Shown: positions 3,584-61,113 of the stretch, piece by piece
Position numbering within the stretch: position 1 is the first letter of the stretch
Layout: each line of letters starts with the position of its first letter
IMG/VR virus record: IMGVR_UViG_3300031952_000016
Span: 1-63,102 of that record
Origin: a virus
Taxonomy: Duplodnaviria; Caudoviricetes
DNA length: 63,102 bases
Reading direction: 5' to 3' (one strand)
The notes under the pieces: generated by a model
Databases searched by the model: none
Told to the model about the DNA's origin: nothing
The model's input: only the letters and a program-made list of their open reading frames with translations
Program-made: the position numbers and the translations under genes

Positions 3584-4315
3584 ATGCAAGTACTAGAATT
3601 ATTAAAAGACGACAGAGAATACTACTCAGGTATTGGTAAGAATTACCTTTCAAACTCAGACATCGGAACATTGCTAGAGAATCCAAAAGAGTTTGGTAAG
3701 CCTAGAGAAGACAACAAAGCATTTGCAGAAGGCAGATACTTTCATCAGTCAATACTTGAGCCTGAGAAGATTAAAGATGTACCATTCGTTGATGTGAGTA
3801 CTCGGACTACTAAAGAGTACAAAGCATTTTGCGAAGCAAACAACCTACCTTTCTGTTTGCTGAAGAAAGAGATTGACGAGATTAAAGGTCTAGTTAATAT
3901 TATCAATAGTAATATTGTATTCTTTGAGGAGATATACAAGACCGGTAATCAGTTTGAGGTTCCTGCTATTGGAGAGATACAAGGTATGATGTGGAAAGGT
4001 AAGGCAGACATCGTAACAGATGATTGCATCATTGACTTGAAGACCACTAGTGATATACAGAAGTTCAAATGGAACGCAAAGAAGTACAACTATGACTCTC
4101 AGTGCTACATATACCAACACTTATTCGGTAAGCCTCTAGTGTTCTATGTGATTGACAAGGTTACAGGAATCCTAGCGGTGTTCAAGCCTACGCAAGAGTT
4201 TGTAGACGGAGGAGCAGTTAAGGTATCAAGAGCAATCGATATGTACCAAAGATACTTCTCAGAGAATCCATCAGACGACATCGACAACTATTACATTGAC
4301 GAATTTTTATACTAA
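3584..4315 (+). CDS. PD-(D/E)XK exonuclease (RecE/ExoVIII-like)
   Basis: LSNSDI, GRYFH, KGKADIV...IIDLKTT, YDSQCYIY; adjacent to the annealase. Confidence 0.8.
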   Translation: MQVLELLKDDREYYSGIGKNYLSNSDIGTLLENPKEFGKPREDNKAFAEGRYFHQSILEPEKIKDVPFVDVSTRTTKEYKAFCEANNLPFCLLKKEIDEIKGLVNIINSNIVFFEEIYKTGNQFEVPAIGEIQGMMWKGKADIVTDDCIIDLKTTSDIQKFKWNAKKYNYDSQCYIYQHLFGKPLVFYVIDKVTGILAVFKPTQEFVDGGAVKVSRAIDMYQRYFSENPSDDIDNYYIDEFLY

Positions 4316-4320
4316 CAATA

Positions 4321-4360
4321 AACCAACTATCATCTCAGCCTTAGGGGGTGGTAGTTGGTT
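4321..4360 (+). promoter_or_regulatory. 16-bp RNA hairpin between exonuclease and SSB
   Basis: AACCAACTATCATCTC pairs with GGGGTGGTAGTTGGTT; the three non-Watson-Crick positions are all G-U. Confidence 0.65.
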
Positions 4361-4395
4361 CAAATAGACTAAGGCAAACTAAAACATTATTTACA

Positions 4396-4701
4396 ATGGC
4401 ACAAGAAGAAAAGATTTTCGCAGACGGTTTCTTATTCAAGAGAAACGAAAAAGCCCCTGACTTCGTAGTAGGGAGAATTAGTATCAAAGTTGATGAAGCA
4501 ATCGCTTTCATTAAACAACACCAAAAGAATGGATGGGTTAACCTTGGGGTTAAGACAGCTCGTAGTGGTAACTACTACATTGACCTTGATACTTTCGAGT
4601 CAAAGAGTCAAGAAGGCGCAGTTGATAAGTACGAGGCTAAAGCAAAAGCTGTCGCTCCTGTAGAAAAAGAAGACGATTATGATGATGATGTTCCTTTTTA
4701 G
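4396..4701 (+). CDS. single-stranded DNA-binding protein
   Basis: KRNEKAPDF motif, acidic tail ending DDDVPF, position after annealase and exonuclease. Confidence 0.65.
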   Translation: MAQEEKIFADGFLFKRNEKAPDFVVGRISIKVDEAIAFIKQHQKNGWVNLGVKTARSGNYYIDLDTFESKSQEGAVDKYEAKAKAVAPVEKEDDYDDDVPF

Positions 4702-12317: not shown

Positions 12318-15300
12318 TTATTTGTATGTTTTTGACTTTCTTACAACTGTTCCATCAGAATTATATCTTTCGCTACTACTACCATAAGAACTACCGTAAG
12401 AACTACCATAAGAACTTTTATCAGAAGTAGATTTTCTGTAATTGTACTCCTTTTCTTCTTTTTTTGTAATTTCTTCATTCATTTTCTCATTAGCCTGCTT
12501 TTCATACTTGTGGTCTTTATACCATTGTGAACGAGGTCCGAAATTTTTATTCCAAAGTCTTCTGTTGTACTTTTTTAAATCTTCTTCATTGTCATAAGAC
12601 TCGTTAGTAATTGGGTTGATAAGTAATTGACTCTTAGCTTCTTTCTCTGCTTTTCTTTCTGCAGTTAATTGAGCTTTTTCTTCAGGACTTTCAGTCAATA
12701 GTTCATTTCTTTTTGTTTCAAGAGCTTCTTCCAACTTAGGATTCGAGTTTTTTTCTAATAGCTTATCAAGAACTTCTACTTTTTCATTTAATTTTTCATC
12801 TACTTTTTGTTCAATTGCAGGAGGATTTTTTAAATCTTTATAGATATTATTCATCACTGTTTTTCTGATGTCTTTGTATAAAGGTATGAATCCTGCATTG
12901 CCTAACACCTCTAAAGGTATTCTAATGTTTTTAACATCTTCCTGTCTCTGAATTGCATCAGCTTCTTTTTTATCTCCGCCACTATATGTCTTTATAATCA
13001 AATTAGTGGTTTTAATTGCAGGACCAAAAGCTCCTGAAAAACTTTCTGCATAGTCATATAATCCTGTTTGCTTTCCTTTTTTCTCTATTGGAATAGATGT
13101 GTACTGTATGGCATCTTTGTATGGGTCATAAGGTCCTTCTCTTAAATCTTGAAGATACTCTTCATTAAACATCTCTAGTCCTTTATTTATAAACATTTTA
13201 GTTGCGTTACCAAAATCTCTATTAAAAAGTAATGAAGTAAAAGTAGATGTCAATGCTTGACCAATAGACTTGTCTAATGCTTTTTCTTCCTCTTCATCAT
13301 CGTCTCCAAATAATAACCCTATTAATCCTGAGCCTAACGCTTTTGAAAGTAAACTATATACAGTCATTCTAGTTGTAACAGCTCCTAGTAATGCAATTCC
13401 TTGTTTCTTACTTAAAGAACCATTACCCATAGCAGCCATTATACCTGTTCTTGCAGAAGTGTATTCGTAAATCAAGAACCTAGTCATAAAGTTATTGAAG
13501 TTATTAAATCCTTTAATAAAGTTAGATTGATTCGGTTTTGATGTTCCTTTTAAAATACCTGTAAAAGTATTATTACTAGCTCCTGTAATTACAGACCTTT
13601 CGTCTGCCGCATCTTTAGCCTTGTCAATAGCCTCTATATTCTGATTCATATATGCTTCATCATTAGCCGCTATCTTTTCAAAATCAATATCTTGACCTGT
13701 TTGTTTCTTAAAATTAGCAGCAAATGCTCCAAACCATATAGGTCTCATTATAGCTTTATCAGGTGTAGTTATTAATACATCAGCCGTTAATTCAACAGCA
13801 TTTTTATATTTCTTACCTGTTAAGTTCCAAATTTGTTGAGCTTTATTTACAACTTTGTTTTTAGCTTTCCCTCCTCTTATTCCATTTGCCTGACTTAAAA
13901 TATTAGTATCAATAAGCCTGCCTGATAAAGTATCAGAAGGAAAAATTCTATTTATCTCCTTGCTATTTACGTTATGCATTATTAATGGAGCGTCAGGAGA
14001 CATAAGTGTAGAAGTGTATTTTAAACCTTCAGCAAATGTTGTAGGGTCGCTTATTATAACAAAACCAACGTTCGATAAAAACTCTGCAGCAAATCTTCCT
14101 GTTCCTGCAAGAATAGAACGATAACCTTGTTTTTTTATATAGTCAATAACATCATCTCCTATTGATGTCTCCATATAACTATTTTGAACTAATCCTTCAA
14201 CTGCTTCTTCAAAAGAATTTTTTATAGCATTTATAATTTTTCTTTTGTCTTTGCTAATTCTTCCTTGATTTTCTAGTTCTGTTATAGCTTTGTTTATAGT
14301 TTTACGAGCAGTACGAATAGGCTCTGTTAAATTATAATCCATTAATACAAACTTAGCTCCCTTGTTAACAGATGCAAATACATCAAAATTAAGAGGAGAT
14401 ACTTTACCTGTTCTTTCTATTAATGATTTTGCTTTTGTAGATGGCTTCAATGAATTGTTGTACTGGTCAGCAAAAGACTCTCCTGATTGCAAATCATTAG
14501 GCTTGGTATCGCTAAGCACGTTTAAGTGAATATAGTTGCTTAAAGGGTTTATTCTTTGACCTCTAATAACTGAAGCAGTGTACTCAGCTTTTTCTGTCAA
14601 AGACTGATTTACTTCTTGAATTGTTTTTATACCTGCTTTTTCTGCACTATTAAAAGAATTGTATAGTTCATCAATATCTATCTCTCCATTAGGCGCAAAT
14701 TTGTCTAATATCTCTTGAAGCATATTGGCATCTCGTTCTTCAAATTGAGACTTTCCTTCATCAATATGTTTTATTGTTGCTTTTAAAAACTCAGCCGCAG
14801 GATTTACTTGTTTGCTATCAGGATTAGAATTGTGCTCAAGTTGAACCATATAAGTCATCATCTTAAACTTAGCCATTAATGTGGCATCAGGATTAAGACT
14901 GTGTGATTTTGCTATTTTTTCTTCCGCATTGGATAGCTTTAATTGAATAGCTTTTAATTCAGCTGTAAACTTAGCCTCTCCTTCAGCCGCTTTTTCTAAT
15001 ATAGAATTAAATATATCTTTCGTTTTAAAGTCTGAAAATATTTGGTCTATATTAAATAACGGATTTCTTCTTATCATCTCAAGAACATAATCTTTTTTTG
15101 TAATAACAGATTTTACCCGAGCATATATTTTTGATAAAGGAAGTAATACTGCTCTTTTTACAGAAGATACTAATGATTTTTTATTATTATTTGAGTTCAA
15201 TTCTTCTATAATCAATTGAGCAGAGTGAGCAAAATATCCATTATTGATATTATCAATGACCTTCAACAAATTCTTTAGTTGAGCATTTGTCAATTCTTTT

Positions 15301-18300
15301 ACCGCAGAAGTTTTTAATAGTGAAGCTAATTTTTTAGCAGCATCACGCTCAATTCTTGTCGGTAATTCATCTGAATTAATAGATAATTTTCCTACTTCTT
15401 TGAGTAAATCGTCTTTTTCTTTTTGTATTTCTGCATCAGTTGCTTGAGTCTTTTCTACTTGAGGAATAATTTCGCTCTTGTATTTATTCATTAGCTCTGC
15501 CTCTTCTTCAGTAATCTCTCCTTCTTTGAGCATCTTCTTAACTGTAGCGGCATAGTTTAATTTACCATCTTCAATTACTTGATTCTCTGAGTAATTAAAC
15601 CTTTGTGATAATTCATCAACAGCTGACCTTTCATTATTTATCTCATCAAGTATATCATTAACGTCATTAATAATTTTAGATTTTTCCTCAAGAGTAAGAA
15701 CAGCTTTTCTTTCAGAGAACATATCTACAAGCTCTATATACCTTTCAAGATTCTTTATAGGGATAAGGCTTGGGTTTATAGAAAGCAATCTTTGTAATGG
15801 TCCAATAAGACCATCAGCTATACCAATCTTAGTATTGATATTTTTCTTAGCGGTTTTTAATTTACCCTTCGCTACATTTATTTTATTATCATAGTCTGCA
15901 TCAGCAAATACCTTAGCCATATAATCTACAAAGTTAGATACTGATATTTCGTTCAGCATATTTACCTTGCTAAACTTAGAAATCATATTTAGAGATTGAG
16001 TAGGCGTTATTTTACCTGATGATTCTAACTCCTTAATTTCTTTTACTAATTGCTGACTAATTTCTTTTGTAGTTTTTATTACATCTTTAGCTCCTCTTAT
16101 TTTATCTCTTATTTGTTTAATCAACAACTCTTTCTCAGTCATTGTAATTTTCTTGATGTCTTTAATTGTTCCAAACAATTTACCTACAGACGGAGCTGAC
16201 TTTTGACTTAATCCAAACTTCTTACGAACCTCACGAACTAATAGTTCTTTTTGTACGTCATTAGCACGTTTATAAACATCTGACCTATTCATATAGTTCA
16301 GCGCATCATCTATCGTCTTACCTCCTGAAATTGCGCTGTCTACAACGCTAGAGAACTTATCGTAACCTTTTAATGCTTGTTCAGATAATTTTTCTCCTTT
16401 ATTGAATTTATTAAGTATTTCATCTTCTATTTTGTCTCTGTTTTTTTGTCCTAATAATCCTACTAAATCTTTTGAAGCTTCTTTAAGAGCTTTTGAGAAC
16501 TCAACTCCTGCATCCATTAATTGACCAAGTTTAATAACGGAGTCAGCGAATGCTCTTTTAAGTACAGTAGAGTCAACACCTTGTTTAGCACTTCCTTTAG
16601 CTCCTTCAGCAACCGCCCAATCAGGTAACTCAAGCTTCATTATTTCATCAGCTATTTTCTTAGCCTTGTCCTCAAATTTAGTTTCAGGAGCAGCTTTAGG
16701 TTTTGTTTTAGGTTTAGGAGTAGGAGCTTCATTTAGGTCTTCAAACTTAAACTCAATCTCTGAGTATCTTTCTCCCATACGGGTATTCAAGAAAGTTTTA
16801 ACTGACTGAGCATCTGATTCAAATGCTTTTTTAGCTCTTCTTAATGTGATTAAATCATAATTACTAGCAGGATTAACCCAAGCACTTGTATCAGGTCCAT
16901 TTGTTTCAAACAAAACCTCTATAGCGTTATCTATTTGCGCTATTCTCTGTTGCACTTTATCGGTAAGAGGCTTTGCTACTACAGGAGATACCTCTTCTAC
17001 TACAGGAGTCTCTGCTACAGGAGTTGGCTCTTCTATTACAGGAGTTACCTCCTCTACCGCAGGAGTCTCTGCTGTAGGAGCTGGCTCAGTTACAACATCT
17101 ATTTCTTGAGGCTTAACTTCTACTACTGTTTCAGGAGCAGGAGTTAATTCTCCTGTTCTTCCTCCTCTGTCAAGTCCTTGAACACTTCCCTGAGTATTTT
17201 TGCTTTTTCTTTTGGCGTTAGCCTCTCGAACTCCTCTGTTAAAACTTTCTCTTGCTGTTGCATCACTATTTATTTTTTTTGTTAAACCTCCTTGTTTTGC
17301 TAAATCAAACATCATAACTTCTGCTAAATCATTAGCCAACTCTCCTTTTATAGAATGAGTTACACCATTTACGTCTGTTATAACAACTCTTTTTACATTT
17401 CCATTCTTATCAGTCTTAATAGATTTTAAACCTGTCCCTTGAGGTGTTATTTTACCTTCAGGAACGCCATCAATTTCTTTCAATATAGTAATACCTCCAT
17501 CTTCACTAATATTAAAGTTAGGAGTTACTTCTTTTGCATTTAGACTATTATCACTCAAAACATCTTGAACAGTACCTAATGAAAACTCTTTGTTGCTATC
17601 TGTAAAAACAACCTCTTGACCATCAAAGAATATATTCCCTTTTAGTTTGTCTCCTGTTATTGGGTCTGTGTACTCGTAAATTTTACCTAATATATTATCT
17701 AAAAATGTTCCTTTTACTTCTTCCGGTTGCGAAGTAGTGATAGTTCCCCCTTGGGTGTCTCCTTCGCCCATTTCTTGCAATCCCAATTCGGGTTGTTCTG
17801 TGCGTAGCACGCTTTCATTTGCTGTTTGTTCTTGAATGGCATCTTGTTTTGTTTTTAAGTTGTCTAATTCTTTTAGTGCTTTTTCTGATTTTTCTACCGA
17901 ACCTTTATCGAATCCACTTTCAGGATTTTCTTTTAAAGCTTTTTTTGCTATCTCTAAAGTTTTTTCAATATATTTTCTTTTATCAGCAAAATATTCATTA
18001 GCCAGTTCTTTTTCCCAATCATAGCTTTTTTCATCTTCAAGAATTCTTTTATTATAATCATCTAAACGTGATATTTCAGGAGTTTCAAAAGAGCCTTCAA
18101 CTTCGCTAACAACTTCATCTGCTAATTGGTTTTCTTGAATATCTTTTATTTTGCCTTTAAGAAGAGAGGCTTTATCTTTACCGGTTTGAGTTTTATTTCC
18201 TTCTAAACCTTTGAGTTCTTTTTCTAACTCGGTAATAGCATTTAGACTTGGTTCATTCAAATTTGGATTAGCTGTTCTAACTTCTTTTTTAATTGCACTT

Positions 18301-19754
18301 GTAACTACTTTGTCTTGTATTTTAAACATTCTTCCTTCGTAGTCATTGTTTATTACAATATCTGTAGCGTGTAACTGCTCAGGAGTCATTGTGTTTATCA
18401 GTTCGTCAATTTGTTGTACTGAAACTTTTTCTCCATTAACTTCATAAGAAGGTTTAGCAAGTCTTGCCTGAATAGTAGAACGAACACCTCCGGGTAATTC
18501 AGCAAGTCCTTCAAGTGCTATTTCAGATACATCCATATCCTGACCTATAGCTAAACGAGCTGCTGCCTCTCCTGCAGAACCTCCTAAAGATTCAACAGCC
18601 GAGCCTGCTGCGACTGATTTTGTAACTGCTTGTTTTGTAGCAGTTCCAACTGATGACTTAGCGGCTGACTTTGTAAGTATTTTAGCACCAACGCCTGAAG
18701 CAAGTTTACCTGTAAGAGCGTCTACAGTACCTATTATTATACCTCTTGCAATCGCTCTATTTCTAATTGATTGTAATTTTTCAGGGTCCTCAAGAATGGC
18801 TCTTACGTTTTCTTTATTAAGGTCTTTCCCTTCTAGTTCTTCGTTAAGTAATTCTCCAAATGTAGAGCCTGCCTCTACTACCGTACTTGCTAATCCAAAC
18901 GCATAAGGAACAGCGCTTACTGCACCTGCTAAAGCACCCGGAACAGCACCTGCTCCTGCAAATTCAGGAGTAGCTATTGCTCCTGTAACTGCACCTCTTG
19001 TGGCTCCTACTCCTATAGCAGCACCTCCTGCTTTTAAAGCATCGGTATTTGTAGCCATTGAAATTATAGAACTCGATAGTACTTCAGGGATAATACTTGG
19101 GTTATTGGCTAATCCTTTTATAACTCCCCAAAATCCTTTACCTTCTTCCTCGTATATTTTATTGTAGTCTTCCATCTCAGCAGAAGATTTTAATTGCTGA
19201 GCACTCTTATTTGCGTCTATAAATTTTTGTATCTGTTCAGGAGTGGCTTTATGCCCTTTTAATAGCAAATCGTCAGCTACTTGAGCAACCTCTCCTTGTC
19301 TATATCCTGAGGCAACACTACGTGCCATATCATCAACAAAATCTCCTATACCTAAAGGAACAATATTGTCAAATCCTCTTAATACATTACCAAAGCCTCC
19401 TGTAAAATAATCTTCTTCTTCGTCAATTGGCTCTTTCTTAGGAGTTATTTTCTTAGGAGGTAACTGCGTAGCCGATAAACCATCTTCCGCAGGTAATTCC
19501 GTAGTACCTTGTTGAGGAATTGGATTTTCTGACGACCCAACAGTATTTTTTTTTTCAGTAGTTAACGAACCGACACCCATAAGTGTTTTATACTCGTCAA
19601 TACTTTTTGAATATCCGTTAGTAACAAATACATCATACGAGTCTTTTAACGCTTGAGGATTTACGTTTATTAATTTCTTATATTCATCAAAGCTTTTAGT
19701 GTATCCATTTGATACAAATACGTCATACGAGTCTTTTAATGCTTGTTCGTTCAT
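12318..19754 (-). CDS. very large (2478 aa) putative internal virion/ejection protein
   Basis: Size, Ala/Gly-rich hydrophobic N-terminal region, last position in the structural operon. Confidence 0.65.
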   Translation of the reverse strand: MNEQALKDSYDVFVSNGYTKSFDEYKKLINVNPQALKDSYDVFVTNGYSKSIDEYKTLMGVGSLTTEKKNTVGSSENPIPQQGTTELPAEDGLSATQLPPKKITPKKEPIDEEEDYFTGGFGNVLRGFDNIVPLGIGDFVDDMARSVASGYRQGEVAQVADDLLLKGHKATPEQIQKFIDANKSAQQLKSSAEMEDYNKIYEEEGKGFWGVIKGLANNPSIIPEVLSSSIISMATNTDALKAGGAAIGVGATRGAVTGAIATPEFAGAGAVPGALAGAVSAVPYAFGLASTVVEAGSTFGELLNEELEGKDLNKENVRAILEDPEKLQSIRNRAIARGIIIGTVDALTGKLASGVGAKILTKSAAKSSVGTATKQAVTKSVAAGSAVESLGGSAGEAAARLAIGQDMDVSEIALEGLAELPGGVRSTIQARLAKPSYEVNGEKVSVQQIDELINTMTPEQLHATDIVINNDYEGRMFKIQDKVVTSAIKKEVRTANPNLNEPSLNAITELEKELKGLEGNKTQTGKDKASLLKGKIKDIQENQLADEVVSEVEGSFETPEISRLDDYNKRILEDEKSYDWEKELANEYFADKRKYIEKTLEIAKKALKENPESGFDKGSVEKSEKALKELDNLKTKQDAIQEQTANESVLRTEQPELGLQEMGEGDTQGGTITTSQPEEVKGTFLDNILGKIYEYTDPITGDKLKGNIFFDGQEVVFTDSNKEFSLGTVQDVLSDNSLNAKEVTPNFNISEDGGITILKEIDGVPEGKITPQGTGLKSIKTDKNGNVKRVVITDVNGVTHSIKGELANDLAEVMMFDLAKQGGLTKKINSDATARESFNRGVREANAKRKSKNTQGSVQGLDRGGRTGELTPAPETVVEVKPQEIDVVTEPAPTAETPAVEEVTPVIEEPTPVAETPVVEEVSPVVAKPLTDKVQQRIAQIDNAIEVLFETNGPDTSAWVNPASNYDLITLRRAKKAFESDAQSVKTFLNTRMGERYSEIEFKFEDLNEAPTPKPKTKPKAAPETKFEDKAKKIADEIMKLELPDWAVAEGAKGSAKQGVDSTVLKRAFADSVIKLGQLMDAGVEFSKALKEASKDLVGLLGQKNRDKIEDEILNKFNKGEKLSEQALKGYDKFSSVVDSAISGGKTIDDALNYMNRSDVYKRANDVQKELLVREVRKKFGLSQKSAPSVGKLFGTIKDIKKITMTEKELLIKQIRDKIRGAKDVIKTTKEISQQLVKEIKELESSGKITPTQSLNMISKFSKVNMLNEISVSNFVDYMAKVFADADYDNKINVAKGKLKTAKKNINTKIGIADGLIGPLQRLLSINPSLIPIKNLERYIELVDMFSERKAVLTLEEKSKIINDVNDILDEINNERSAVDELSQRFNYSENQVIEDGKLNYAATVKKMLKEGEITEEEAELMNKYKSEIIPQVEKTQATDAEIQKEKDDLLKEVGKLSINSDELPTRIERDAAKKLASLLKTSAVKELTNAQLKNLLKVIDNINNGYFAHSAQLIIEELNSNNNKKSLVSSVKRAVLLPLSKIYARVKSVITKKDYVLEMIRRNPLFNIDQIFSDFKTKDIFNSILEKAAEGEAKFTAELKAIQLKLSNAEEKIAKSHSLNPDATLMAKFKMMTYMVQLEHNSNPDSKQVNPAAEFLKATIKHIDEGKSQFEERDANMLQEILDKFAPNGEIDIDELYNSFNSAEKAGIKTIQEVNQSLTEKAEYTASVIRGQRINPLSNYIHLNVLSDTKPNDLQSGESFADQYNNSLKPSTKAKSLIERTGKVSPLNFDVFASVNKGAKFVLMDYNLTEPIRTARKTINKAITELENQGRISKDKRKIINAIKNSFEEAVEGLVQNSYMETSIGDDVIDYIKKQGYRSILAGTGRFAAEFLSNVGFVIISDPTTFAEGLKYTSTLMSPDAPLIMHNVNSKEINRIFPSDTLSGRLIDTNILSQANGIRGGKAKNKVVNKAQQIWNLTGKKYKNAVELTADVLITTPDKAIMRPIWFGAFAANFKKQTGQDIDFEKIAANDEAYMNQNIEAIDKAKDAADERSVITGASNNTFTGILKGTSKPNQSNFIKGFNNFNNFMTRFLIYEYTSARTGIMAAMGNGSLSKKQGIALLGAVTTRMTVYSLLSKALGSGLIGLLFGDDDEEEEKALDKSIGQALTSTFTSLLFNRDFGNATKMFINKGLEMFNEEYLQDLREGPYDPYKDAIQYTSIPIEKKGKQTGLYDYAESFSGAFGPAIKTTNLIIKTYSGGDKKEADAIQRQEDVKNIRIPLEVLGNAGFIPLYKDIRKTVMNNIYKDLKNPPAIEQKVDEKLNEKVEVLDKLLEKNSNPKLEEALETKRNELLTESPEEKAQLTAERKAEKEAKSQLLINPITNESYDNEEDLKKYNRRLWNKNFGPRSQWYKDHKYEKQANEKMNEEITKKEEKEYNYRKSTSDKSSYGSSYGSSYGSSSERYNSDGTVVRKSKTYK

Positions 19755-51994: not shown

Positions 51995-52226
51995 TAATCG
52001 TGTACTGCTTTTCATCAATTAGCATTGTAAATCCGTGTGCCTTGTCATAGTAGATGTCATCATCTTTCTTTATGTTAGGCACATCTGTTCCTGCTTCAAT
52101 AACTAAACCACGTTTGTATCGCATTTGGTTTACATCTTCTCCCGATAGAATCAATCCTGACTCTGTCTTCAACTCTTCATCAACGGTCTTGATGACTATG
52201 TATTTTCCTATGGGCTTTAATGACAT
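51963..52226 (-). CDS. groES: co-chaperonin GroES
   Basis: LKPIGKYIVI, KTESGLIL mobile loop, GLVIEAG, ERDVVVV. Confidence 0.9.
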   Translation of the reverse strand: MSLKPIGKYIVIKTVDEELKTESGLILSGEDVNQMRYKRGLVIEAGTDVPNIKKDDDIYYDKAHGFTMLIDEKQYTIITERDVVVVL

Positions 52227-52897
52227 AATTTTTTTATTTTTAATTGTTTATTTAATATTTTACTGTTTACTTTTTTAGACCTTCCGTATAGGTTATTTGA
52301 TATTGCTGTCTCTAAACATCCTAATTTTTTTGCTGCTTCTCTTACAGAAGAAAAATTTTCAATAAATTCAGAAGTATAATAGTCATAACAAGAAATAGGA
52401 ACGGATGTTATTATTTTTGACTTATTTGACAATCTCATTTTAGCTTTAACTTGCTCAGGTATCTTTGTTCCTGTTCTTGCTTTGGCTATATTTTCTCTAT
52501 GCTCTTTAGATTTTATCTTTCCTTTATGAGATAAAGATATTTTATTTTTCCATTCTTCAGTTCTTATAACAGATTTTAAAGATTCTATTTTCTTTTTTAA
52601 AATGCTAAAAGAAACTGCTTCGACAGTAATTCCTCCTTTTGTTTGATTAATAAGTTGGCCATTTTTTAAATCTATTCTTCCGTATTTAGTAATAAGTTCT
52701 ATCTCTAACTCAAATGCTTGCTCTTGAGTTAATCCATCTTTATATATTTCAATTATATAACCATATTTACTTACTACTCTATTCCACCATTCAGGTCTTT
52801 GCTTACAATAGGCTCTTTTTAAATCCCCCATACCTACATAGAAAACAGAATTATCTGTTTTCTTTTTATGTAGATATACAACTTTGTTATTTTTCAT
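52217..52897 (-). mobile_element. free-standing homing endonuclease (GIY-YIG-like with NUMOD3/NUMOD1-like repeats)
   Basis: VYLH...FYVGMG..KRA, E..LI..YG, LINQTKGG; RTEEWKNKISLSHKG repeats; FSSVREAAKKLG. Confidence 0.8.
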
Positions 52898-52946: not shown

Positions 52947-54554
52947 TTACTCGTTTGATTGTTCGTAGCTTCTCGCCATTGTGATTATCGCATCTGTGCT
53001 TAGGATTGTTACCGCTACACTCACTGCGTTTTGCAATGCTGAACGGGTTACTTTCAACGGGTCTATTACTCCCATTTTTACCAAGTCTCCAAACTCTCTT
53101 GTTTTTAGATTGTACCCGTGACCCTGAGCTACACCATCTGAATAGATGTCTGATGCTCTTAGTCCTGCGTTAGCAAGTATCTGTAAGAACGGAGCCATAA
53201 GTGCTACGCTTAAAATATTTATTGCCGCATTGTACTCCTCACTCTTGTTATCGTCTAAATGTAACGCTGCACTCTCCTCAAGTAATGCTTTCCCTGCTCC
53301 GGGCACGATACCTTCCTCTAGTGCTGACCTTACCGCACATACCGCATCATCAACTCTATCAAATAACTCTTTCTGCTCTAGGTCTGTCTGACCTCCTACG
53401 AATATCACTCCGATACCTCCTGTAAGGGAAGCGATACGCTCTAAGATAAAGTCTTTCTCGTGTTTCTTAGTTGCGTTCTTATGCGCATCCCACAACTGAG
53501 ACACTCTTTCGTCAATTGCTTTTTGGTCTAACCTCAAGTCTGACTTGATGATAACAGTTTTGTCCTTGCTCACAATTATCTTAGCTGCGTGCCCTAGGTC
53601 TCCAAAGTTGATGATACTCAAATCATCTCCCGTTTTCTCGCTGAAGTAAGTCGCTCCAACGCTAATGGCAATGTCATACATCAACTCGTGTTGCTTGTAC
53701 CCAAAACTAGGTGGTGCAACTGCACATACCTTGATGTTCCCCTTTACAACATTTGCCGCCAAACTATTGATTAGGTTCTGACCACAAGGAGATATTATCA
53801 ATAACTTTTTACCCTCACTAACAATTGGCTTAAGCACGTTCTCAATCTGAAGGATATTAGTAATCTCCATATCAGCAACCAACACCATAACATCCTCAAA
53901 TATGCACTCATCTTTTTTCTGCTCGTTTATAAACATCGGACTCAAATACCCTCTGTCAAATTTCAACCCTAAAGTGGTCTCCGCATACGTCTCGTCAGTC
54001 TGACTTTTCTCCACCGTTACAATACCGGTCTTACCAACATCTTTGTACACCTCAGAGATTATCTTCCCTATCTCTCTATCGTTGTTTGCAGATATGCTCG
54101 CTACATCCACCAACATAGAGCTAGTAACTCTCTTGCTCTTTTTGCGCAACCTATCCACCACCTTGTCGCTTATCTCCACCATACTCCTTAAGACCTCAGT
54201 CCTGTTTAGATTTGGCGTAATATGCTCAAGTCCTCCCAATACCAACCCCTCTGTAAGCACAATAGCCGTAGTGGTCCCATCTCCTGCGGCAGTAGCGGTA
54301 CGCTCAGCAGCCTCCTTCATCATCTTAACCGCAAGGTTCTCCGAAGGGTCTAACAAGTCAATAGCCTTAGCCACTGTTACACCATCTTTAGTAACCGTGA
54401 TGCCGTGAGTGTGTGTAGGGCTCTCTATCAAGACCGGATTACCTCCCGGACCTAACGTAGCTTTTACAGCTTTTGACATCTTTACCACTCCATTTACTAA
54501 TTTTTTCCTTCCTGTGTCCCCAAAACACAAATCTTTAGGCGAATACTCTAGCAT
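52947..54554 (-). CDS. groEL: chaperonin GroEL
   Basis: TLGPGG, TKDGVTVA, AGDGTTTA, FDRGYLSP, EEGIVPG, GVIDPLKVTRSALQNA. Confidence 0.95.
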   Translation of the reverse strand: MLEYSPKDLCFGDTGRKKLVNGVVKMSKAVKATLGPGGNPVLIESPTHTHGITVTKDGVTVAKAIDLLDPSENLAVKMMKEAAERTATAAGDGTTTAIVLTEGLVLGGLEHITPNLNRTEVLRSMVEISDKVVDRLRKKSKRVTSSMLVDVASISANNDREIGKIISEVYKDVGKTGIVTVEKSQTDETYAETTLGLKFDRGYLSPMFINEQKKDECIFEDVMVLVADMEITNILQIENVLKPIVSEGKKLLIISPCGQNLINSLAANVVKGNIKVCAVAPPSFGYKQHELMYDIAISVGATYFSEKTGDDLSIINFGDLGHAAKIIVSKDKTVIIKSDLRLDQKAIDERVSQLWDAHKNATKKHEKDFILERIASLTGGIGVIFVGGQTDLEQKELFDRVDDAVCAVRSALEEGIVPGAGKALLEESAALHLDDNKSEEYNAAINILSVALMAPFLQILANAGLRASDIYSDGVAQGHGYNLKTREFGDLVKMGVIDPLKVTRSALQNAVSVAVTILSTDAIITMARSYEQSNE

Positions 54555-54580
54555 TTGATTTAATTTTTAATTGTTATATG

Positions 54581-54588
54581 CAAATATA
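54581..54588 (-). promoter_or_regulatory. Bacteroidota -7 promoter box for groEL
   Basis: TATATTTG on the - strand. Confidence 0.6.
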
Positions 54589-54668
54589 GTACAATAAATT
54601 ATATTTGATACCATACTTGATGGGAAATGCGAAGCAGAGATGGATTTTTATGTGTCGTTTATTGGGTT

Positions 54669-54748
54669 ATGTCGGTTTGTATGTCGGTTTTATGACGATT
54701 TATGACGAAAAATGTCGAGAAATGTCGGTTAATGTCGAAAAAATGTCG
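54669..54748 (+). repeat. eight phased ATGWCG direct repeats (iteron-like)
   Basis: Starts at 54669, 54681, 54692, 54702, 54712, 54722, 54732, 54743. Confidence 0.8.
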
Positions 54749-54973
54749 CAGGAAGTCCAGTAAACATTGAAAAAACGACAAAAATGCAATTTTATTTTCT
54801 CTACCTCTCTCTCAGAAAATATATACTCTTCTTCTTTTTTTTATTATTTCATTCTCTTCTTTTTTTCGACATTATCGACATTAAAAGAATAAAGTATTAA
54901 TAATCAAATAGTTAGAAAAATTGAGTCGTCGCAAAAACGTCGTAAAATATAACCGATTGTGTCGATTATAAGT

Positions 54974-55009
54974 AAAAAGAAACCCTATAGTTCGTATAGG
55001 GCTTTTTTT
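54974..55009. terminator. bidirectional terminator
   Basis: CCCTATA/TATAGGG stem flanked by an A-run and a T-run. Confidence 0.7.
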
Positions 55010-55032
55010 ACTCTGTTGATTGGGATTGTTTT

Positions 55033-55266
55033 TTAATCACAACAATCTTCTTCCATCATCTCAGACATAGCATTGCCTCTTGCAACAATAGAAATCTTCT
55101 CAGCGGTTCTAATAGACTTTCTCATCTGTGCCATCTGTGCAATACCAGTTTGTCCATCAGGGCGTTCGTTAATCAACATACCATTCTTTACAGTCAATCC
55201 ACTATATGAACCACTAGCGGTCTTCTGTTGGTAGATACTGTTCTTTAAATTTAAAGGATTTTTCAT
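55033..55266 (-). CDS. hypothetical protein
   Basis: ORF track; TATCTTTG box at 55295-55288 favours the ATG at 55266. Confidence 0.65.
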   Translation of the reverse strand: MKNPLNLKNSIYQQKTASGSYSGLTVKNGMLINERPDGQTGIAQMAQMRKSIRTAEKISIVARGNAMSEMMEEDCCD

Positions 55267-55833
55267 AGTGTACTTATTTAAGTTAGACAAAGATAATAAT
55301 TTTTAGATAGTAGTAGTGATTGGGCTATATGTAGGTTTGACGACAGCGCGCCCCAAACGAAAACGACTTTTTTTTCGCATAGTGGGGTACTGTTTTGTAG
55401 GATTTTCCCTACATTTTTTCAGCTTTTTGCAAGCTACTTTGTAGTCCTTCTCCTACAAATACGCTATACGCTTGTACTAATTCTCCTACATTTTGCACTA
55501 GTTTCTTACTACATTTTTTATCGTTGCTATCCTGCTAATTGCTTGACTGTCAGTGTGTTATGAATGTAAGAATCCACTTACAAACGCTTACAATAGGCTA
55601 TTTTAGGGCTTGACTTAAAACCTCTTTTGTAGTCCTAATCCTATTAAAACTTAAAAATATTAATTCCATAACTACCTGATTTTAAACAACTTACATTTAA
55701 TATCTCAAAAAAAACTAAATTTTAACATTTTAAATATTGTATTGTAAAACTATTGTATTAATATTGCTAAAGATTTGCAAAGGGAATTAACCATATTAAC
55801 CACAAATCAAAACAACGATTAAAATTTAATATT

Positions 55834-56112
55834 ATGGGAACTAAAGTAACAATTCAGAATGTAAGAAACGTAAACAATGCTAAAAAAGAGCAAAACAAAA
55901 CAATAGGCGGTATTATATCCAACATCTTAACGCTAGACAAAAACAAGCTAGAGAATAAAGAAGATAAAAGTATAATTGAATATTTAGTTAAGGCAAAAAA
56001 AGATAGTAACGTATATAAAAGATTATGCGAAAATGTTAAGCTCCACTACAAAACTAATCTACCTAATCAATACGCCGTATTACAAGCCGTTAAGGTTATA
56101 TTAAACAAGTAG
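55834..56112 (+). CDS. first early hypothetical protein (basic)
   Basis: ORF track; first + strand gene after the strand switch. Confidence 0.7.
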   Translation: MGTKVTIQNVRNVNNAKKEQNKTIGGIISNILTLDKNKLENKEDKSIIEYLVKAKKDSNVYKRLCENVKLHYKTNLPNQYAVLQAVKVILNK

Positions 56113-56244
56113 GAATTATCTTACATTTTCAGGGTGCCTACTTTGTTGAGAATAGACAAAGGTAAAAATCGAATTTTTGCACTCTACAAAAGTGGTTTTA
56201 TTGTGTTACACTAGATTAACACAAAATTTATAAAAGTATCTTAT

Positions 56245-56318
56245 TTTGTAGCTCCTAGAGTGCAATTTTAGAAACGTAAACTTTTATAAATAGTTGTATT
56301 TGTAGCTCCTAGAGTGCA
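56245..56318 (+). repeat. 20-bp direct repeat TTTGTAGCTCCTAGAGTGCA x2
   Basis: Copies at 56245-56264 and 56299-56318. Confidence 0.85.
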
Positions 56319-56755
56319 TTTAATAACTGTTATTTGAAATTTCGATATATTACAAAGGTGCAAAAGTGTACTAAAATAACCGTATTGTTATACGTTTAAA
56401 ATTAGTACTCGATTAGCTAACAAAGTACATATCGATATGTAAAAAAATGCATTAAACAGTATAAAAAAACTGTTTACAATTGTAACACTACAACGTTACA
56501 AACGTGGTTTTTTGTGTGTTTTTTATCCATAGGACTGTACGAGGCAAAAGTATGAAGACTCGCCTAAACTAAGTTAATGACTTAATGATACAGTACACAA
56601 AGGTACTAAAGACAAGCTATGTCTAGTAGTGGGCGACCTTTGTAGTAAAAAAGCCAAACGTTGAACGGGGCGAACGGTATTTACAAATGTAAATTTACAA
56701 ATGTAAACAACAATATTAAACTATTCCACTTCAAACGAGGTGGAATTTTTATATA

Positions 56756-56805
56756 GCATAGTCATTGGAATGATTAATTAAGGTTCGATTCCTTACTATG
56801 CGCTA
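56756..56805 (+). ncRNA. tRNA-like minihelix (acceptor-like stem + T arm)
   Basis: GCATAG/CTATGC stem stacked on TAAGG-TTCGATT-CCTTA. Confidence 0.6.
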
Positions 56806-56823
56806 ATTTAAAACCAAATAAAG

Positions 56824-57006
56824 ATGAGAACACGAATGAACACAAAGGTTGATGTTACAAATGTAATACAACAAATTGAGATTGAGATTAGAGCCTATTC
56901 AAAAGCGGTACGTACTATAATGCTACTTAAGAAGGTGGAGTACAAGGACGCAAAAAGAATTTTGGAAATGAGATTAACTGAACGTTTAATATTTAAAACA
57001 GCATAA
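56824..57006 (+). CDS. hypothetical protein, paralog of 57644..57814
   Basis: IQQIE...YKDAK.IL..RLTERL.FK.A. Confidence 0.7.
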   Translation: MRTRMNTKVDVTNVIQQIEIEIRAYSKAVRTIMLLKKVEYKDAKRILEMRLTERLIFKTA

Positions 57007-57007
57007 A

Positions 57008-57232
57008 ATGAACAGTCTAACAAATCATCAGTACTACAAAGGATTAAATAATAGGTTTGACAATAGGGTAAAAAAGCTAGTGAAAGCAGGACTTTTTTAT
57101 GATAAAGAACTTATAGGATTTAGAGTAAGGAATAGAAATCAAAGTAACCCGAATAATTATATTTTAAATTCAATAATAATGCATTCAGACAAGAGACATT
57201 TCAATTTAACATTAAACAATATGATACAATGA
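57008..57232 (+). CDS. hypothetical protein
   Basis: ORF track. Confidence 0.65.
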   Translation: MNSLTNHQYYKGLNNRFDNRVKKLVKAGLFYDKELIGFRVRNRNQSNPNNYILNSIIMHSDKRHFNLTLNNMIQ

Positions 57233-57643: not shown

Positions 57644-57814
57644 ATGAATGACAACCAAGAATTAGCAAGCGCTATTCAACAAATCGACTATGAGTTTAAT
57701 GCGTACTGTAATGCAATCAGAACAGTAATGAAATTAGACAACGTAAAGTACAAGGATGCAAAGGCTATCCTAGACAGAAGACTAACCGAACGTTTACTAT
57801 TTAAAAAAGCATAG
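57644..57814 (+). CDS. 56-aa paralog of 56824..57006
   Basis: Manual translation MNDNQELASAIQQID...YKDAKAILDRRLTERLLFKKA*. Confidence 0.7.
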   Translation: MNDNQELASAIQQIDYEFNAYCNAIRTVMKLDNVKYKDAKAILDRRLTERLLFKKA

Positions 57815-59078: not shown

Positions 59079-60284
59079 ATGAGATTATCAGTATTAAGAA
59101 CGCTTTACGAAGTGTTCAACGATGACAGAGAGAAAGTACAACGTGCAATCTCTAGTTTAGAAAATGGGGATGTATCTATCCAAGAGATAGAGTCCGGAGA
59201 ATACTTCTCCCACGAAGATGGCTACTATTCCTGTGAGGACTATGTAACTACCGAAAATGGAGATGTACTACATAGAGACGATGCTTTCTATTGTAATGGC
59301 TATGAAGAGTATTATCACGAGGATGATATGGTAACTGTGTACGAGGATGGAGACACGAACTATTACAGCCGACAATGGATAGAGAACAGGACTGATGACT
59401 ATGCTTTTTATGAGGGCGAGTGGTATGACAACAGTGCACAACAAAGATACTGTCTTGTGTGGGCACAAGATATGAACCAATTAATCCACGAGGACTGTGC
59501 GTACTACCACGATGGAGATGGTTGGTACTCGTATGAGCCTGACGAGACTGAGGAGTATGTTCGTGGCTATCACAATGGTAGCTATCAGTCCATTAACTTT
59601 GACAACAAGTCTAAGTATCGTATCGGCTACGAGATTGAGAAGGAGGACTCAGAGGTATTGGAGAGTATCAACATCCAAGACTTCGAGAGTAATACTGATT
59701 ACAAGTGGCGTAAAGAAAAAGATGGCTCTCTCGATGATGATTCAGGCTATGAACTTATCAGTCCTACCTTTGAGTTTAACATCGACAAGATATTTGAGCA
59801 TATTGAGAGTAATGATGTATTAGTAGAGCATATCAATGCAAAGTACAGTACAAGTTGTGGTGGACACATTCATCTATCAGAGAAGAACCTTAATGGAGAG
59901 CAGTTGTTCGAGAAGATTAAAGGGTACACACCTCTGTTGTATGCCTTGTACTACGGCAGGGTAGACAAGAACTTCTGCAAAGGTAAAGCCAATAAAGACC
60001 TAGCCTATGAGAATGAGAAGTATCAGGCTATCAAGATACACCACGATAGGGTAGAGTTTCGTATCATCAGTGCGGTTATCAATGTTAAGACTCTCAAGTG
60101 GAGAACAAAGTTATTGATGATGATTTTGCAGAACCCTACCCACGATGTCATCAGAGCGTACTACAACGTGGATACTAAGTTCACAAAGTTACTCAAGCAG
60201 ACTTATACAGACAGCAAGTTAGTTGACTTGAAGGAACGCTTTATAAAATTTACAAAACAATTTGAAGGAATAGATATTAAATAA
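59079..60284 (+). CDS. putative amidoligase (COOH-NH2 ligase) with an acidic Tyr-rich N-terminus
   Basis: IGYEIE, KDGSL...GYELISP, SCGGHIH, VEFRI. Confidence 0.75.
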   Translation: MRLSVLRTLYEVFNDDREKVQRAISSLENGDVSIQEIESGEYFSHEDGYYSCEDYVTTENGDVLHRDDAFYCNGYEEYYHEDDMVTVYEDGDTNYYSRQWIENRTDDYAFYEGEWYDNSAQQRYCLVWAQDMNQLIHEDCAYYHDGDGWYSYEPDETEEYVRGYHNGSYQSINFDNKSKYRIGYEIEKEDSEVLESINIQDFESNTDYKWRKEKDGSLDDDSGYELISPTFEFNIDKIFEHIESNDVLVEHINAKYSTSCGGHIHLSEKNLNGEQLFEKIKGYTPLLYALYYGRVDKNFCKGKANKDLAYENEKYQAIKIHHDRVEFRIISAVINVKTLKWRTKLLMMILQNPTHDVIRAYYNVDTKFTKLLKQTYTDSKLVDLKERFIKFTKQFEGIDIK

Positions 60285-60303
60285 CAATTAAACAATTAAC
60301 ATT

Positions 60304-61113
60304 ATGTGCATAGCAATTTTAAACACGAAAAAAGCAGGTAGATTACCTAAGAATCAAATCAAAAACTCTTGGGATAACAATGATATGGGAGCAGGTCTCC
60401 TATGGAACAAAGACGGTAAGTTAAATGTATTCAAGTCGTATGACTATGATGACTACATAGACAAGTACAATGCCCTTAGAGATGACAATACCATCAACAG
60501 TATAGTGTTACATTTCAGGATAGCCACTAGTGGTTACAATGGAGAGCATAACCTTCATCCCTTTCTTGTCAATGACAACGTAGGATTTGTACACAACGGA
60601 GTCATTAGTGGACTAGGTAACAAGACCTTCTCAGACACGTATGAATTTAATGATATGCTTAAAAAGTTTAAGCACGATTTCTTATCTTGCGATATGAGTA
60701 AGTTCTTCATATCAGAGTACATAGGGTACAGCAAGCTAGTGTTCTTAGATAACAAAGACAAGCATACCATTATCAATGAGGAGTTAGGTAAGTGGTCCAA
60801 TGGTAATTGGTACTCCAATGATTCCTACAAAGAGTACAAGCCCTATGTTTATTATGGGAATCAAAAGGTTGCTAAGACGGATGTTGCAGGCAGTAAGACC
60901 TACCCTCACTATGATTACAGCAAAGATGCGTGGGATGATTTAGACGAGGGAATAGAGTATGACGAGTGGGATGTGTATGACTACCTATGTAGCGTGTACG
61001 GACTAAACCCTGAGGCAGACGATTCAATAGATGAGTTAGAGACGTATATGACGCTGAACAACGTAGACAACATCATAGATTTGTACAAAATCATAGGCGG
61101 GGAAATGGAATAA
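60304..61113 (+). CDS. class II glutamine amidotransferase
   Basis: N-terminal Cys (MCIAI), HFRIATSG, HPF, FVHNG, SDT. Confidence 0.85.
   Translation: MCIAILNTKKAGRLPKNQIKNSWDNNDMGAGLLWNKDGKLNVFKSYDYDDYIDKYNALRDDNTINSIVLHFRIATSGYNGEHNLHPFLVNDNVGFVHNGVISGLGNKTFSDTYEFNDMLKKFKHDFLSCDMSKFFISEYIGYSKLVFLDNKDKHTIINEELGKWSNGNWYSNDSYKEYKPYVYYGNQKVAKTDVAGSKTYPHYDYSKDAWDDLDEGIEYDEWDVYDYLCSVYGLNPEADDSIDELETYMTLNNVDNIIDLYKIIGGEME

Follow-up and report, generated by a model that had tools for sequence, protein, structure and literature searches.

The complete virus record IMGVR_UViG_3300031952_000016 (Duplodnaviria; Caudoviricetes) comprises 63,102 bp of DNA, analysed here at its full length and referred to as the window. 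Between positions 56113 and 56823 it carries a hairpin-rich tract of 711 nt, which begins directly after a small plus-strand gene (gene 1) and ends at the start codon of a plus-strand open reading frame (ORF) of 60 amino acids. From 5′ to 3′ the tract comprises a module with two identical repeats (M1), a series of central hairpins, a long three-tier hairpin (M3), a hairpin that resembles an intrinsic terminator, and a tRNA-like element (TL) just upstream of the next start codon. An earlier reading of the same DNA (the original prediction) had proposed a large early non-coding RNA (ncRNA) or a cluster of small RNAs, possibly anti-defence decoys or protein sponges; the terminator and the TL at the 3′ end were absent from it, as was the mosaic make-up of the tract.

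The tract had been described as non-coding, and it contains no ORF of 32 amino acids or more in 56113–56823 (translation table 11). No long frame appears in it when TGA is recoded as tryptophan. With TAG recoded as glutamine the frame of gene 1 would extend to 56289; this candidate was rejected, as the related contig L002 has an in-frame TAA after the TAG.

All nine stems listed in the original prediction are present at their places, and the folding energy of the tract is lower than that of shuffled sequence. The plus strand of the 711-nt tract folds at −165.5 kcal/mol compared to −135.6 ± 7.1 for 100 dinucleotide shuffles (z = −4.23, 0/100 as low), and the minus strand gives z = −4.83 (0/100 as low). 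A smaller shuffle set (n = 20) yields z = −5.2 and −4.7 for the tract, and its sub-blocks are individually weaker (z = −1.2 to −4.6). We also scanned the genome in 1259 windows of 200 nt, with the minimum free energy regressed on base composition. The tract, a run of about 650 nt, is the lowest run of 10 consecutive windows on the plus strand of the 63-kb genome, and the fraction of 10-window runs as low as the tract is 0.0016 on the plus strand and 0.0096 on the minus strand. By both the shuffle z-scores and the genome-wide scan, so many hairpins are a real feature of the tract and out of the ordinary for this genome.

The tract matches no Rfam family and is absent from Rfam and from phage annotation pipelines. 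At gathering score, an Rfam search of the whole window returned a tRNA-Leu only, and a permissive scan of 54500–57200 returned chance-level matches only (E above 4). ARAGORN called nothing in the tract, and a blastn search of 55400–57100 against 50,697 phage records gave no match.

Conserved modules and covarying helices

Relatives of the locus were collected through gene 1 (L002, L009), through the family of the 60-amino-acid ORF behind the tract (L012, L013, L014, L015, L017) and through a conserved 51-amino-acid ORF further downstream (L019, L022, L024–L028). Homologous modules were found in L002, L009, L012, L013, L014, L017, L022, L024, L025/L026 and L027. Nine TL-bearing contigs have a common order, consisting of a GroEL-like gene, a small minus-strand ORF, gene 1, an ORF-poor tract, the TL and small ORFs, and by our own reading the ORF-poor tract measures about 550–770 nt in each of them. 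L009 shares gene 1 and M1 and ends before the TL would be reached; L015 and L028 are without a TL, and L019 starts too late to tell.

The modules occur in changing combinations. M1 is common to L002 (95% identity) and L009 (90%), and in L002 it is better kept than the gene that precedes it. In an all-against-all comparison, 56438–56669 is common to L022 (80%) and more loosely to L027; M3 and the terminator are common to L014, L017, L022 and L027, and the last 115 nt of the tract to L012. Modules that are not in the window are likewise shared, some between L002 and L012 and some between L009 and both L014 and L017, and the central part of the tract differs between close relatives. Modules kept at 65–95% identity in such changing company are unlikely to be junk and, to judge from this pattern, equally unlikely to be parts of one integrated fold.

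Alignments of the shared modules show that the helices named in the original prediction are kept by compensatory changes in related phages. In the alignment of the window, L022 and L027 (A13), which covers central hairpin Ha, helix Hc with its inner hairpin and the three tiers of M3, 98.9% of the 93 cells of 34 pairs are paired and 12 pairs are changed on both sides. Covariation scores 0.510 here versus 0.229 for shuffles (0/500), and the score falls to at most 0.088 when the partner strand is slid by 1–3 columns. The alignment of M3 and the terminator in the window, L014 and L017 (A11) has 25 pairs, 94.6% paired, of which 8 are changed on both sides (score 0.480 versus 0.233 for shuffles, 0/500). 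All counted helices together contain 19 G·U cells versus 1 A·C cell, and the T-loop motif of the TL reads UUCGAUU on the plus strand only. Based on the G·U bias, the orientation of the T loop and its homology to tRNA, the structure belongs to a plus-strand RNA, in the sense of the flanking genes; a DNA structure or a minus-strand RNA would not give a 19:1 bias for G·U.

Module M1 (56107–56340) opens with hairpin P0 (GTAGGA....TCTTAC, 56109–56124, plus strand), which overlaps the stop codon of gene 1; one of its pairs is G·U in the window and G-C in L009, and L002 carries one mismatch. Helix P1 (AGGGTGC/GCACTCT, 56131–56185, plus strand) encloses hairpin P1a (56141–56161). One of its pairs changes from A-U to C-G and another from C-G to U·G, a single pair reads G·U in the window, A-U in L002 and G-C in L009, and the inner hairpin is swapped for a different one in L009. 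Hairpin P2 (TTGTGTTA CACTAGAT TAACACAA, with stem TTGTGTTA/TAACACAA; 56201–56224, plus strand) shows one U-A to C-G and one A-U to G·U change in L009. The 11-bp helix P3 (TTTATAAAAGT/ACTTTTATAAA, 56227–56290, plus strand) encloses the hairpin of the first repeat copy (R1, 56246–56265) and has one A-U to G·U change and one broken pair (U·U) in L009. The second 20-nt repeat copy (R2, 56300–56318, plus strand) can form a bulged hairpin of the R1 type with a CUA loop, and a conserved tail behind it reaches to about 56340. Across helices P0 to P3, 94 of the 96 cells are paired, with two compensatory changes (A-U to C-G in P1, U-A to C-G in P2) and six G·U cells.

The original prediction had also suggested alternative folds, in which the segment TGCACTCTA (56178) pairs either with its upstream partner AGGGTGC or with TAGAGTGCA of the repeats. 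The second pairing is possible in the window and in L002 and is not kept in L009. There, the TGCACTCTA segment has changed together with the upstream strand (ACGGGTG/CACCCGT) and the repeats are unchanged. From this joint change, the local helix P1 is the conserved pairing and not a switch.

The 20-mer TTTGTAGCTCCTAGAGTGCA occurs exactly twice, at 56245 and 56299, as had been noted; no other site in the window lies within 3 mismatches of it, and 0.01 are expected by chance. Both copies are identical in the window, L002 and L009, the three M1-bearing phages, while their flanks vary, and the repeats thus yield no covariation. A model of module M1 (model R1) matches the window, L002/L016 and L009 only, with no match in the named phages MW202828.1 and phi14:2 or in the other relatives apart from a single weak match in L015 (E = 0.21). 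An exact search of 185,579 prokaryote genomes with the 18-mer core of the repeat gave 2 chance matches, none of them in Bacteroidota (Nitrososphaera and a metagenome-assembled genome of Bacillota, single copy each). With neither of the two in Bacteroidota, there is no exact host sequence for the repeats to mimic. Among viral contigs, the 18-mer in L004 covers a ribosome-binding site and start codon of a GC-rich jumbo phage and was set aside as chance, and the other match, L005, is the same as L002. A permissive scan with the Rfam CRISPR-DR models gave no match on R1 or R2. An RNA anti-CRISPR or host-sequence mimic was accordingly rejected as a class for the repeats, on the basis of a genome search for exact matches only and of the missing CRISPR-DR match.

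Two of the other tracts contain twin near-identical hairpin repeats of their own, unrelated to the 20-mer of the window: L014 at 1845–1932 (28 nt twice, 60 nt apart) and L022 at 1400–1446 (22 nt twice, 25 nt apart). At the thresholds used, close tandem twin repeats are missing from six of the 8 other tracts that were scanned; four of those six are without any direct repeat, and L025 and L027 have pairs that lie 379 and 175 nt apart.

Downstream of M1, none of the tracts compared matches the part between about 56340 and about 56440. This part contains a GTACTAA/TTAGTAC hairpin around CGTAT/ATACG (56368–56408, plus strand) and, at its end, the perfect 16-nt palindrome TACATATCGATATGTA (56426–56441), both read from the sequence only. 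The following hairpins have counterparts in L022 and L027. Hairpin Ha (AAACAGT/ACTGTTT, 56454–56475, plus strand) has 7 pairs, 3 of which are changed on both sides, with 100% of cells paired in the window, L022 and L027. Hairpin Hb (TGTAAC/GTTACA, 56481–56500, plus strand), the 5′ flank of which carries the first TTACAATTGTAA palindrome (56474–56485), is replaced at that place by a hairpin of different sequence in each of L022 and L027, as read by eye; the alignment registers differ there and no formal count is given. A U-rich stretch, ACGTGGTTTTTTGTGTGTTTTTTATCCATAGG (56502–56533, plus strand), is nearly invariant in the window, L022 and L027 and may be an internal 3′ end or a protein site. 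Helix Hc (ACTGTA/TACAGT, 56534–56594, plus strand) has 6 pairs, 4 of them changed on both sides, and its inner hairpin TAAGT/ACTTA is identical in L022 and deleted in L027.

The long hairpin M3 (56597–56643, plus strand) is built of three tiers (ACAAAGGT/ACCTTTGT, ACTA/TAGT and AGAC/GTCT) and covaries in two alignments. Helices 4 and 5 of the alignment of the window, L022 and L027, which form M3, are 100% paired with 5/16 pairs changed on both sides, and the tier that reads AGAC/GUCU in the window reads GGG/CCC in L014 and GGG/UUU (G·U pairs) in L017.

Two tandem copies of the palindrome TTTACAAATGTAAA follow M3 (56680–56707), with further copies at 56474 and 56855. The motif TTACAAWTGTAA has 4 copies in the genome, all inside 56474–56866, and occurs also in L012 and L027. 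One L012 copy lies 31 nt into the homologous 60-amino-acid ORF, as in the window, and one makes the inner hairpin of the L012 TL; the L027 copy lies within the stretch that aligns to the window. The twin 20-mers and TTACAAWTGTAA could be bound as DNA by a dimeric regulator or as RNA by a protein.

Terminator and tRNA-like element

A terminator scan identified a hairpin of the intrinsic type near the 3′ end of the tract (ATTCCACTTC/GAGGTGGAAT, 56723–56751, plus strand). Its stem (56723–56746) has 10 pairs, 4 of them G-C, and is followed by TTTTT, which gives it the G+C hairpin and U run of a putative terminator. A hairpin with T5–6 and ATATA stands at the same place in L012, L002, L014, L017 and L027, and L022 has a hairpin and T-run followed by TTTAATTAT. 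Two of the 10 pairs of the terminator helix are changed on both sides among the window, L014 and L017. The consensus of the Bacteroidota −7 box is TAnnTTTG. A search of the tract by eye revealed no convincing −7 box, and a sigma-70 scan gave weak 9-of-12 matches only.

The TL (56756–56802, plus strand; about 47 nt) begins nine bases after the terminator. Its layout is GCATAG..UCAU-UGGA-AUGA..UAAGG-UUCGAUU-CCUUA-CUAUGC, that is, an acceptor helix of 6–7 bp, then a small D-like hairpin capped by a UGGA loop, then a T arm whose loop is canonical; there is no anticodon arm. In the window 16–17 nt lie between the acceptor strand and the T arm, and the acceptor strands are about 35 nt apart. The motif GGTTCRANTCC is found in the genome at the TL and at the phage tRNA-Leu only (0.05 expected by chance). 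An A-rich spacer of 21 nt (56803–56823, plus strand) separates the TL from the ATG of the next ORF.

Nine distinct TL homologues align end to end (alignment A14). Their 12 acceptor and T-stem pairs are paired in 95.4% of 108 cells, with 9 pairs changed on both sides, and the covariation score is 0.593 versus 0.238 for shuffles (0/500) and at most 0.19 with the partner slid. The interior of the element varies: the window, L024, L025 and L027 have nothing but the short D-like hairpin, L012 and L022 have a further hairpin, and L002, L013 and L017 have one longer bulged hairpin. Where inner hairpins are present, their loops are of 4–6 nt and not conserved, as read by eye, and none of the homologues has an anticodon arm. 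A model built from the nine TLs (model R2) finds exactly one copy per genome and matches no true tRNA, nor MW202828.1 or phi14:2.

The TL of L013 scores 34.2 bits with the Rfam tRNA model (threshold 29), with the anticodon arm deleted in the alignment, and is the only one of the 9 to pass; on this match, the TL is tRNA-derived. The window TL has no Rfam tRNA match at E ≤ 10, and ARAGORN calls none of the 9 homologues. With a canonical tRNA the TL shares the acceptor helix stacked on a T arm with a UUCRANY loop (L025 is the exception). We rejected it as a canonical tRNA, as it has no anticodon arm with a 7-nt loop and the window copy goes undetected by the Rfam tRNA model and ARAGORN.

A transfer-messenger RNA (tmRNA; RF00023) was rejected as well, as the TL has no tag frame, no pseudoknots and no G3·U70, and ARAGORN calls none. 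The third acceptor pair in A14 is C-G in 8 sequences and U-A in 1. Within the tract, the Rfam tmRNA model aligns weakly and only in part at two sites (7.1 bits, E = 5.6; 6.7 bits, E = 7.8), compared to 46 bits for the tmRNA of phi14:2, used as positive control. A home-made scanner for acceptor and T arm missed the window TL, which has a 6+5 register, and gave 0.59 matches per shuffled genome; it was dropped.

The spacer from TL to ATG is about 21–24 nt by our own count in L002, L014, L017, L022 and L025, whichever ORF follows; in L012, L024 and L027 an additional hairpin widens it to about 35 nt. In 10 contigs, by our own reading, the TL is flanked by the terminator on one side and the next ATG on the other, which is the kind of RNA junction at which an element of the t-element type would be expected.

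Genome context and known systems

The proteins recognised in this phage include a crAss-type muzzle, a portal, a large terminase (TerL), a GroEL-like chaperonin and a primase-helicase. TerL is closest to that of the uncultured freshwater podovirus MW202828.1 (76%), followed by the Flavobacterium 'elemo' phages (45%) and the Cellulophaga podoviruses (37–39%). The locus lies, between gene 1 and a set of small ORFs, in a freshwater podovirus clade related to crAss-like phages of Flavobacteriia. Minus-strand genes span about 12.3 kb to 54.5 kb, and a plus-strand block of mostly small ORFs starts at 55834; the GC skew switches where this block begins.

Gene 1 (55834–56112, plus strand; 92 amino acids) is the first plus-strand ORF past the divergent switch. 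Its product is 92% identical in L002 and 93% in L009 and weakly similar to its positional counterparts in L013, L014 and L017; the family is fast-evolving, with a C-terminal Y..LQ motif common to its members, and has no Pfam or PHROG match and no Atlas lead. The ORF 3′ of the tract (56824–57006, plus strand; 60 amino acids), whose ATG follows the A-rich spacer, belongs to a paralogous family of about 60 amino acids, with a second member in the window (57644–57814), one in L002 (5292–5471) and at least one copy in the relatives; no member has a Pfam or PHROG match.

Further downstream (59079–61113) lie an amidoligase-like ORF (401 amino acids) and then a glutamine-amidotransferase-like ORF (269 amino acids), a pair that is kept in L002; both Pfam matches are under the curated cut-offs. 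A tblastn search with the 401-amino-acid protein gave no match, and a two-pattern scan derived from its alignment returned the known contig only. Protein family scans, which left the padloc library aside, recognised no defence or counter-defence gene beside the tract.

On the other side of the switch, an array of about 8 ATGTCG/ATGACG words at a spacing of about 10 nt (54668–54745) lies immediately upstream of the GroEL-like gene; TCGACA words related to its own are found at 54866–54880 and 54960–54978. The array looks like iterons or an operator array and would be a better origin candidate than the tract. The divergent intergenic region also contains two plus-strand elements made of a hairpin and a T-run (55395–55417 and 55472–55494), which resemble hairpin P0 after gene 1 (repeat family D2); of these, one has a terminator score despite its position upstream of the first plus-strand gene. 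A homing-endonuclease-like ORF (NUMOD1/I-HmuI-like; phrog_314; 52217–52897, minus strand) adjoins the GroEL-like gene. A giant minus-strand protein of 2478 amino acids (12318–19754) matches phrog_32588, of unknown function. A motif search (no DFDxD) and a PDB sequence search (no match) do not identify it as a crAss-type virion RNA polymerase.

The closest precedent for an early, untranslated locus is the crAss-like Cellulophaga phage phi14:2. According to the preprint by Drobysheva et al., two long intergenic regions that open its early block exceed most genes in transcription from the earliest time point onward, and the resulting early long non-coding RNAs (lncRNAs; g004–g005 and g005–g006) persist and have unknown function (bioRxiv 10.1101/2020.03.07.982082). 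We identified a tmRNA (4031–4502 of NC_021806.1, our L007, plus strand) inside the g005–g006 lncRNA region, for which ARAGORN gives the tag GSSVQKLAMVA* and Rfam gives 46.0 bits versus a gathering score of 47 (E = 1.6e−15); the feature table of NC_021806.1 has no RNA gene at 4031–4502. Two weaker tRNA-like minihelices, read by eye, lie at 1759–1852 and 3385–3457, the first of them (element 'a') preceded by a hairpin and TTTTTATAT.

The two phages share long ORF-free regions within the first few kb of a rightward small-ORF block, both are phages of Flavobacteriia, and in both these regions hold tRNA-like T-arm/acceptor elements, which in phi14:2 were read by eye. In contrast, sequence similarity between them is limited to short words, models R1 and R2 give no match in phi14:2, and the window contains no full tmRNA as phi14:2 does; expression is shown in phi14:2, and the present phage is read from its sequence alone. 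It may be more widely common among these phages to have tRNA-derived RNAs where the early block opens. In a literature search on tmRNA in crAss-like and Cellulophaga phages and on tRNA-like early phage ncRNA, no such element was found described.

The TL resembles the tRNA-like domain of tmRNA in its acceptor helix, its T arm with a UUCGA loop, its D-loop with GG and its lack of an anticodon arm. Unlike tmRNA, it has no frame or pseudoknots between the acceptor strands, no G3·U70 and no encoded CCA. Non-decoding tRNA shapes at the border of two RNAs are known elsewhere. mascRNA, a tRNA-shaped element, stands at the 3′ end of MALAT1. In plant mitochondria, the ends of mRNAs are defined by tRNA-like t-elements (PMC1920247). 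These systems are eukaryotic or organellar, whereas the TL is found in a phage, is without an anticodon arm, stands about 21 nt before a start codon, and has a cleavage that is proposed only.

Large structured RNAs next to tRNA-like sequence are known from phages as well. GOLLD and ROOL are structured ncRNAs of 500–800 nt from phages and prophages, of unknown function and often beside or around tRNAs, and GOLLD has a conserved part and a variable part (PMC12286853). The present tract differs from both in consisting of simple exchangeable hairpin modules and not of one ornate pseudoknotted fold, and the GOLLD and ROOL models gave no match in the window at gathering score, in 54500–57200 at E ≤ 10, or in the relatives at E ≤ 1.

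Readings of the locus

Our favoured reading is that the tract is a modular structured ncRNA locus on the plus strand, with the TL as a processing signal, and we put the probability of this statement as a whole at about 0.55. Its first half, a structured plus-strand ncRNA locus, is highly probable in view of the absence of coding, the excess structure, the conserved layout, the covariation in most helices and the strand. The role of the TL in processing, drawn by analogy, is tentative and somewhat less probable than its opposite. To judge from the alignments, the locus consists of independently folding, exchangeable hairpin modules, then the terminator, then the TL at the head of the next message. 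What the original prediction called a large early ncRNA or a cluster of small RNAs is borne out as to non-coding sequence, covarying helices and strand; the region is presumed to be early, from its position beside the divergent switch and the precedent of phi14:2.

Transcription through gene 1 would yield one or several stable hairpin-rich RNAs containing M1 with its two identical bulged hairpins, the central hairpins Ha, Hb and Hc, and the long hairpin M3, and these RNAs would end at the intrinsic terminator (56723–56746) and might act in trans. The acceptor/T minihelix of a tRNA and the elbow formed by its D loop and T loop are what RNase P, RNase Z and the CCA-adding enzyme recognise. Exactly these parts are kept in the TL, which we therefore propose to be a punctuation signal, a site at which the tRNA-processing enzymes of the host would cut and free the ncRNA from the downstream message. 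The cut would leave that message with a short, unstructured, A-rich leader suited to the Shine-Dalgarno-independent translation of Bacteroidota.

Several observations weigh against this reading or parts of it. The nearest named relative, MW202828.1, is without the tract and without a TL. The mosaic exchange of modules argues against one integrated fold, and the folding energy does not tell the strands apart (z of −4.2 on the plus and −4.8 on the minus strand). Most alignments hold three related sequences, and significance is overstated by the shuffles for that reason; a fairer control is the slid partner, which scores clearly lower than the observed pairing. The register of P1 in L009 was set by hand, MAFFT and Infernal having kept a sequence-based register, and the hairpins between about 56340 and about 56440 rest on one sequence, since that stretch has no relative. 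The repeats R1 and R2 are conserved as sequence, as are the TTACAAWTGTAA palindromes, which are kept without covariation; both could equally be protein-binding sites in DNA. An efficient terminator would require that the TL and the downstream ORFs have a promoter of their own, and none was identified. Finally, the T loop of L025 reads AGCGAAA, versus UUCGAUU in the window, which counts against the reading if the elbow of T loop and D loop matters.

The tract could instead be the 3′ untranslated region of gene 1 joined to the 5′ untranslated region of the next operon, acting in cis by attenuation or antitermination, through a repressor on TTACAAWTGTAA, or through the TL as a 5′ element that recruits ribosomes or other factors. 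This agrees with a terminator directly upstream of the next ORFs, with the four genome-unique palindrome copies that flank it and recur as a motif in L012 and L027, and with a TL that is always about 21–35 nt from the next ATG, whatever the ORF. As an account of the whole tract we consider it unlikely, as 550–770 nt with at least 10 covarying helices go far beyond the needs of known attenuators, the modules are swapped without regard to the gene downstream, the alternative pairing is not kept in L009 and no regulator was identified. A leader or operator is possible for the palindromes, the terminator and the TL; it leaves the covarying helices unexplained. The decoy or protein sponge of the original prediction, in which repeated hairpins and a tRNA mimic titrate a host factor, is somewhat less likely again and, being a function layered on the same RNA with its anatomy unchanged, is a matter of speculation. 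Its targets could be a tRNA-targeting nuclease or nucleotidyltransferase, a type III toxin or an RNA chaperone, and its baits the hairpins R1 and R2, the UUUAC-AAWU-GUAAA hairpins and the tRNA mimic. Repeats that stay invariant in 3 phages amid varying flanks would suit such a bait, as would the twin repeats of unrelated sequence in the L014 and L022 tracts, a TL that keeps the upper half of a tRNA yet cannot decode, and the fast turnover of modules between close relatives, which we take as typical of arms-race loci. However, there is no known partner and no Rfam antitoxin, CRISPR-repeat or other family in the tracts of the window, L002 and L009; the 18-mer core, without a match in Bacteroidota, offers no exact host sequence to mimic; 6/8 further tracts are without a close tandem twin repeat; and the Pfam and PHROG scans, which left out the padloc library, show no gene of defence or counter-defence beside the tract.

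Hairpins that act as DNA, in a replication origin, a packaging site or N4-style hairpin promoters for a phage RNA polymerase, would fit a tract near the switch in GC skew and strand that has perfect palindromes and a minus-strand folding energy equally low. The virion polymerase of phi14:2 required denatured DNA in vitro, according to the preprint (bioRxiv 10.1101/2020.03.07.982082). We regard such a role as very improbable, as the helices contain G·T over A·C at 19:1, which DNA cruciforms do not favour, the T loop and the tRNA homology are strand-specific, the iteron-like array lies elsewhere and the giant protein is without DFDxD. The differences in the central part between close relatives and the stretch without a homologue might even suggest a decayed gene or recombination junk with chance hairpins in AT-rich DNA. 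Covariation in every module that has homologues, the most structured plus-strand run in the genome, and a length and layout kept across nine TL-bearing contigs leave this a negligible probability.

Beyond the favoured reading of a modular ncRNA locus with a processing signal lies a bolder and doubtful one. The TL would represent a new class of phage tRNA mimic, one that has no anticodon arm, and the tract a 'hairpin cassette' whose modules are swapped under selection by host defences. In this case the TL would recruit the host tRNA machinery (RNase P, RNase Z, the CCA-adding enzyme and perhaps the ribosome), whether for the maturation and loading of the first early message, in hosts whose translation does without Shine-Dalgarno pairing, or as a decoy for tRNA-targeting immune nucleases, and the twin hairpins would titrate a dimeric host protein.

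Through the tract, the unexplained abundant early ncRNAs of phi14:2 gain a comparative handle. About 10 related genomes have in the same slot covarying RNA modules, a conserved terminator and a defined tRNA-derived element, and two concrete objects emerge, the TL of about 47 nt and the twin-hairpin module M1. Structured ncRNAs of phages are known as such; one with a tRNA-like element in this form and lineage was found described nowhere in the literature searched. If RNase P and RNase Z cleave the TL, the first downstream message would owe its 5′ end to them, and a processed TL would be the bacterial-virus counterpart of organellar t-elements and mascRNA. If the hairpins bind host factors, the locus would be a candidate for RNA-based counter-defence. 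If the reading as a tRNA-mimic cassette is true, it would imply, together with the tmRNA inside the early RNA of phi14:2, that abundant tRNA-derived ncRNAs are the routine opening of infection in those phages of Flavobacteriia that are related to crAss-like phages.

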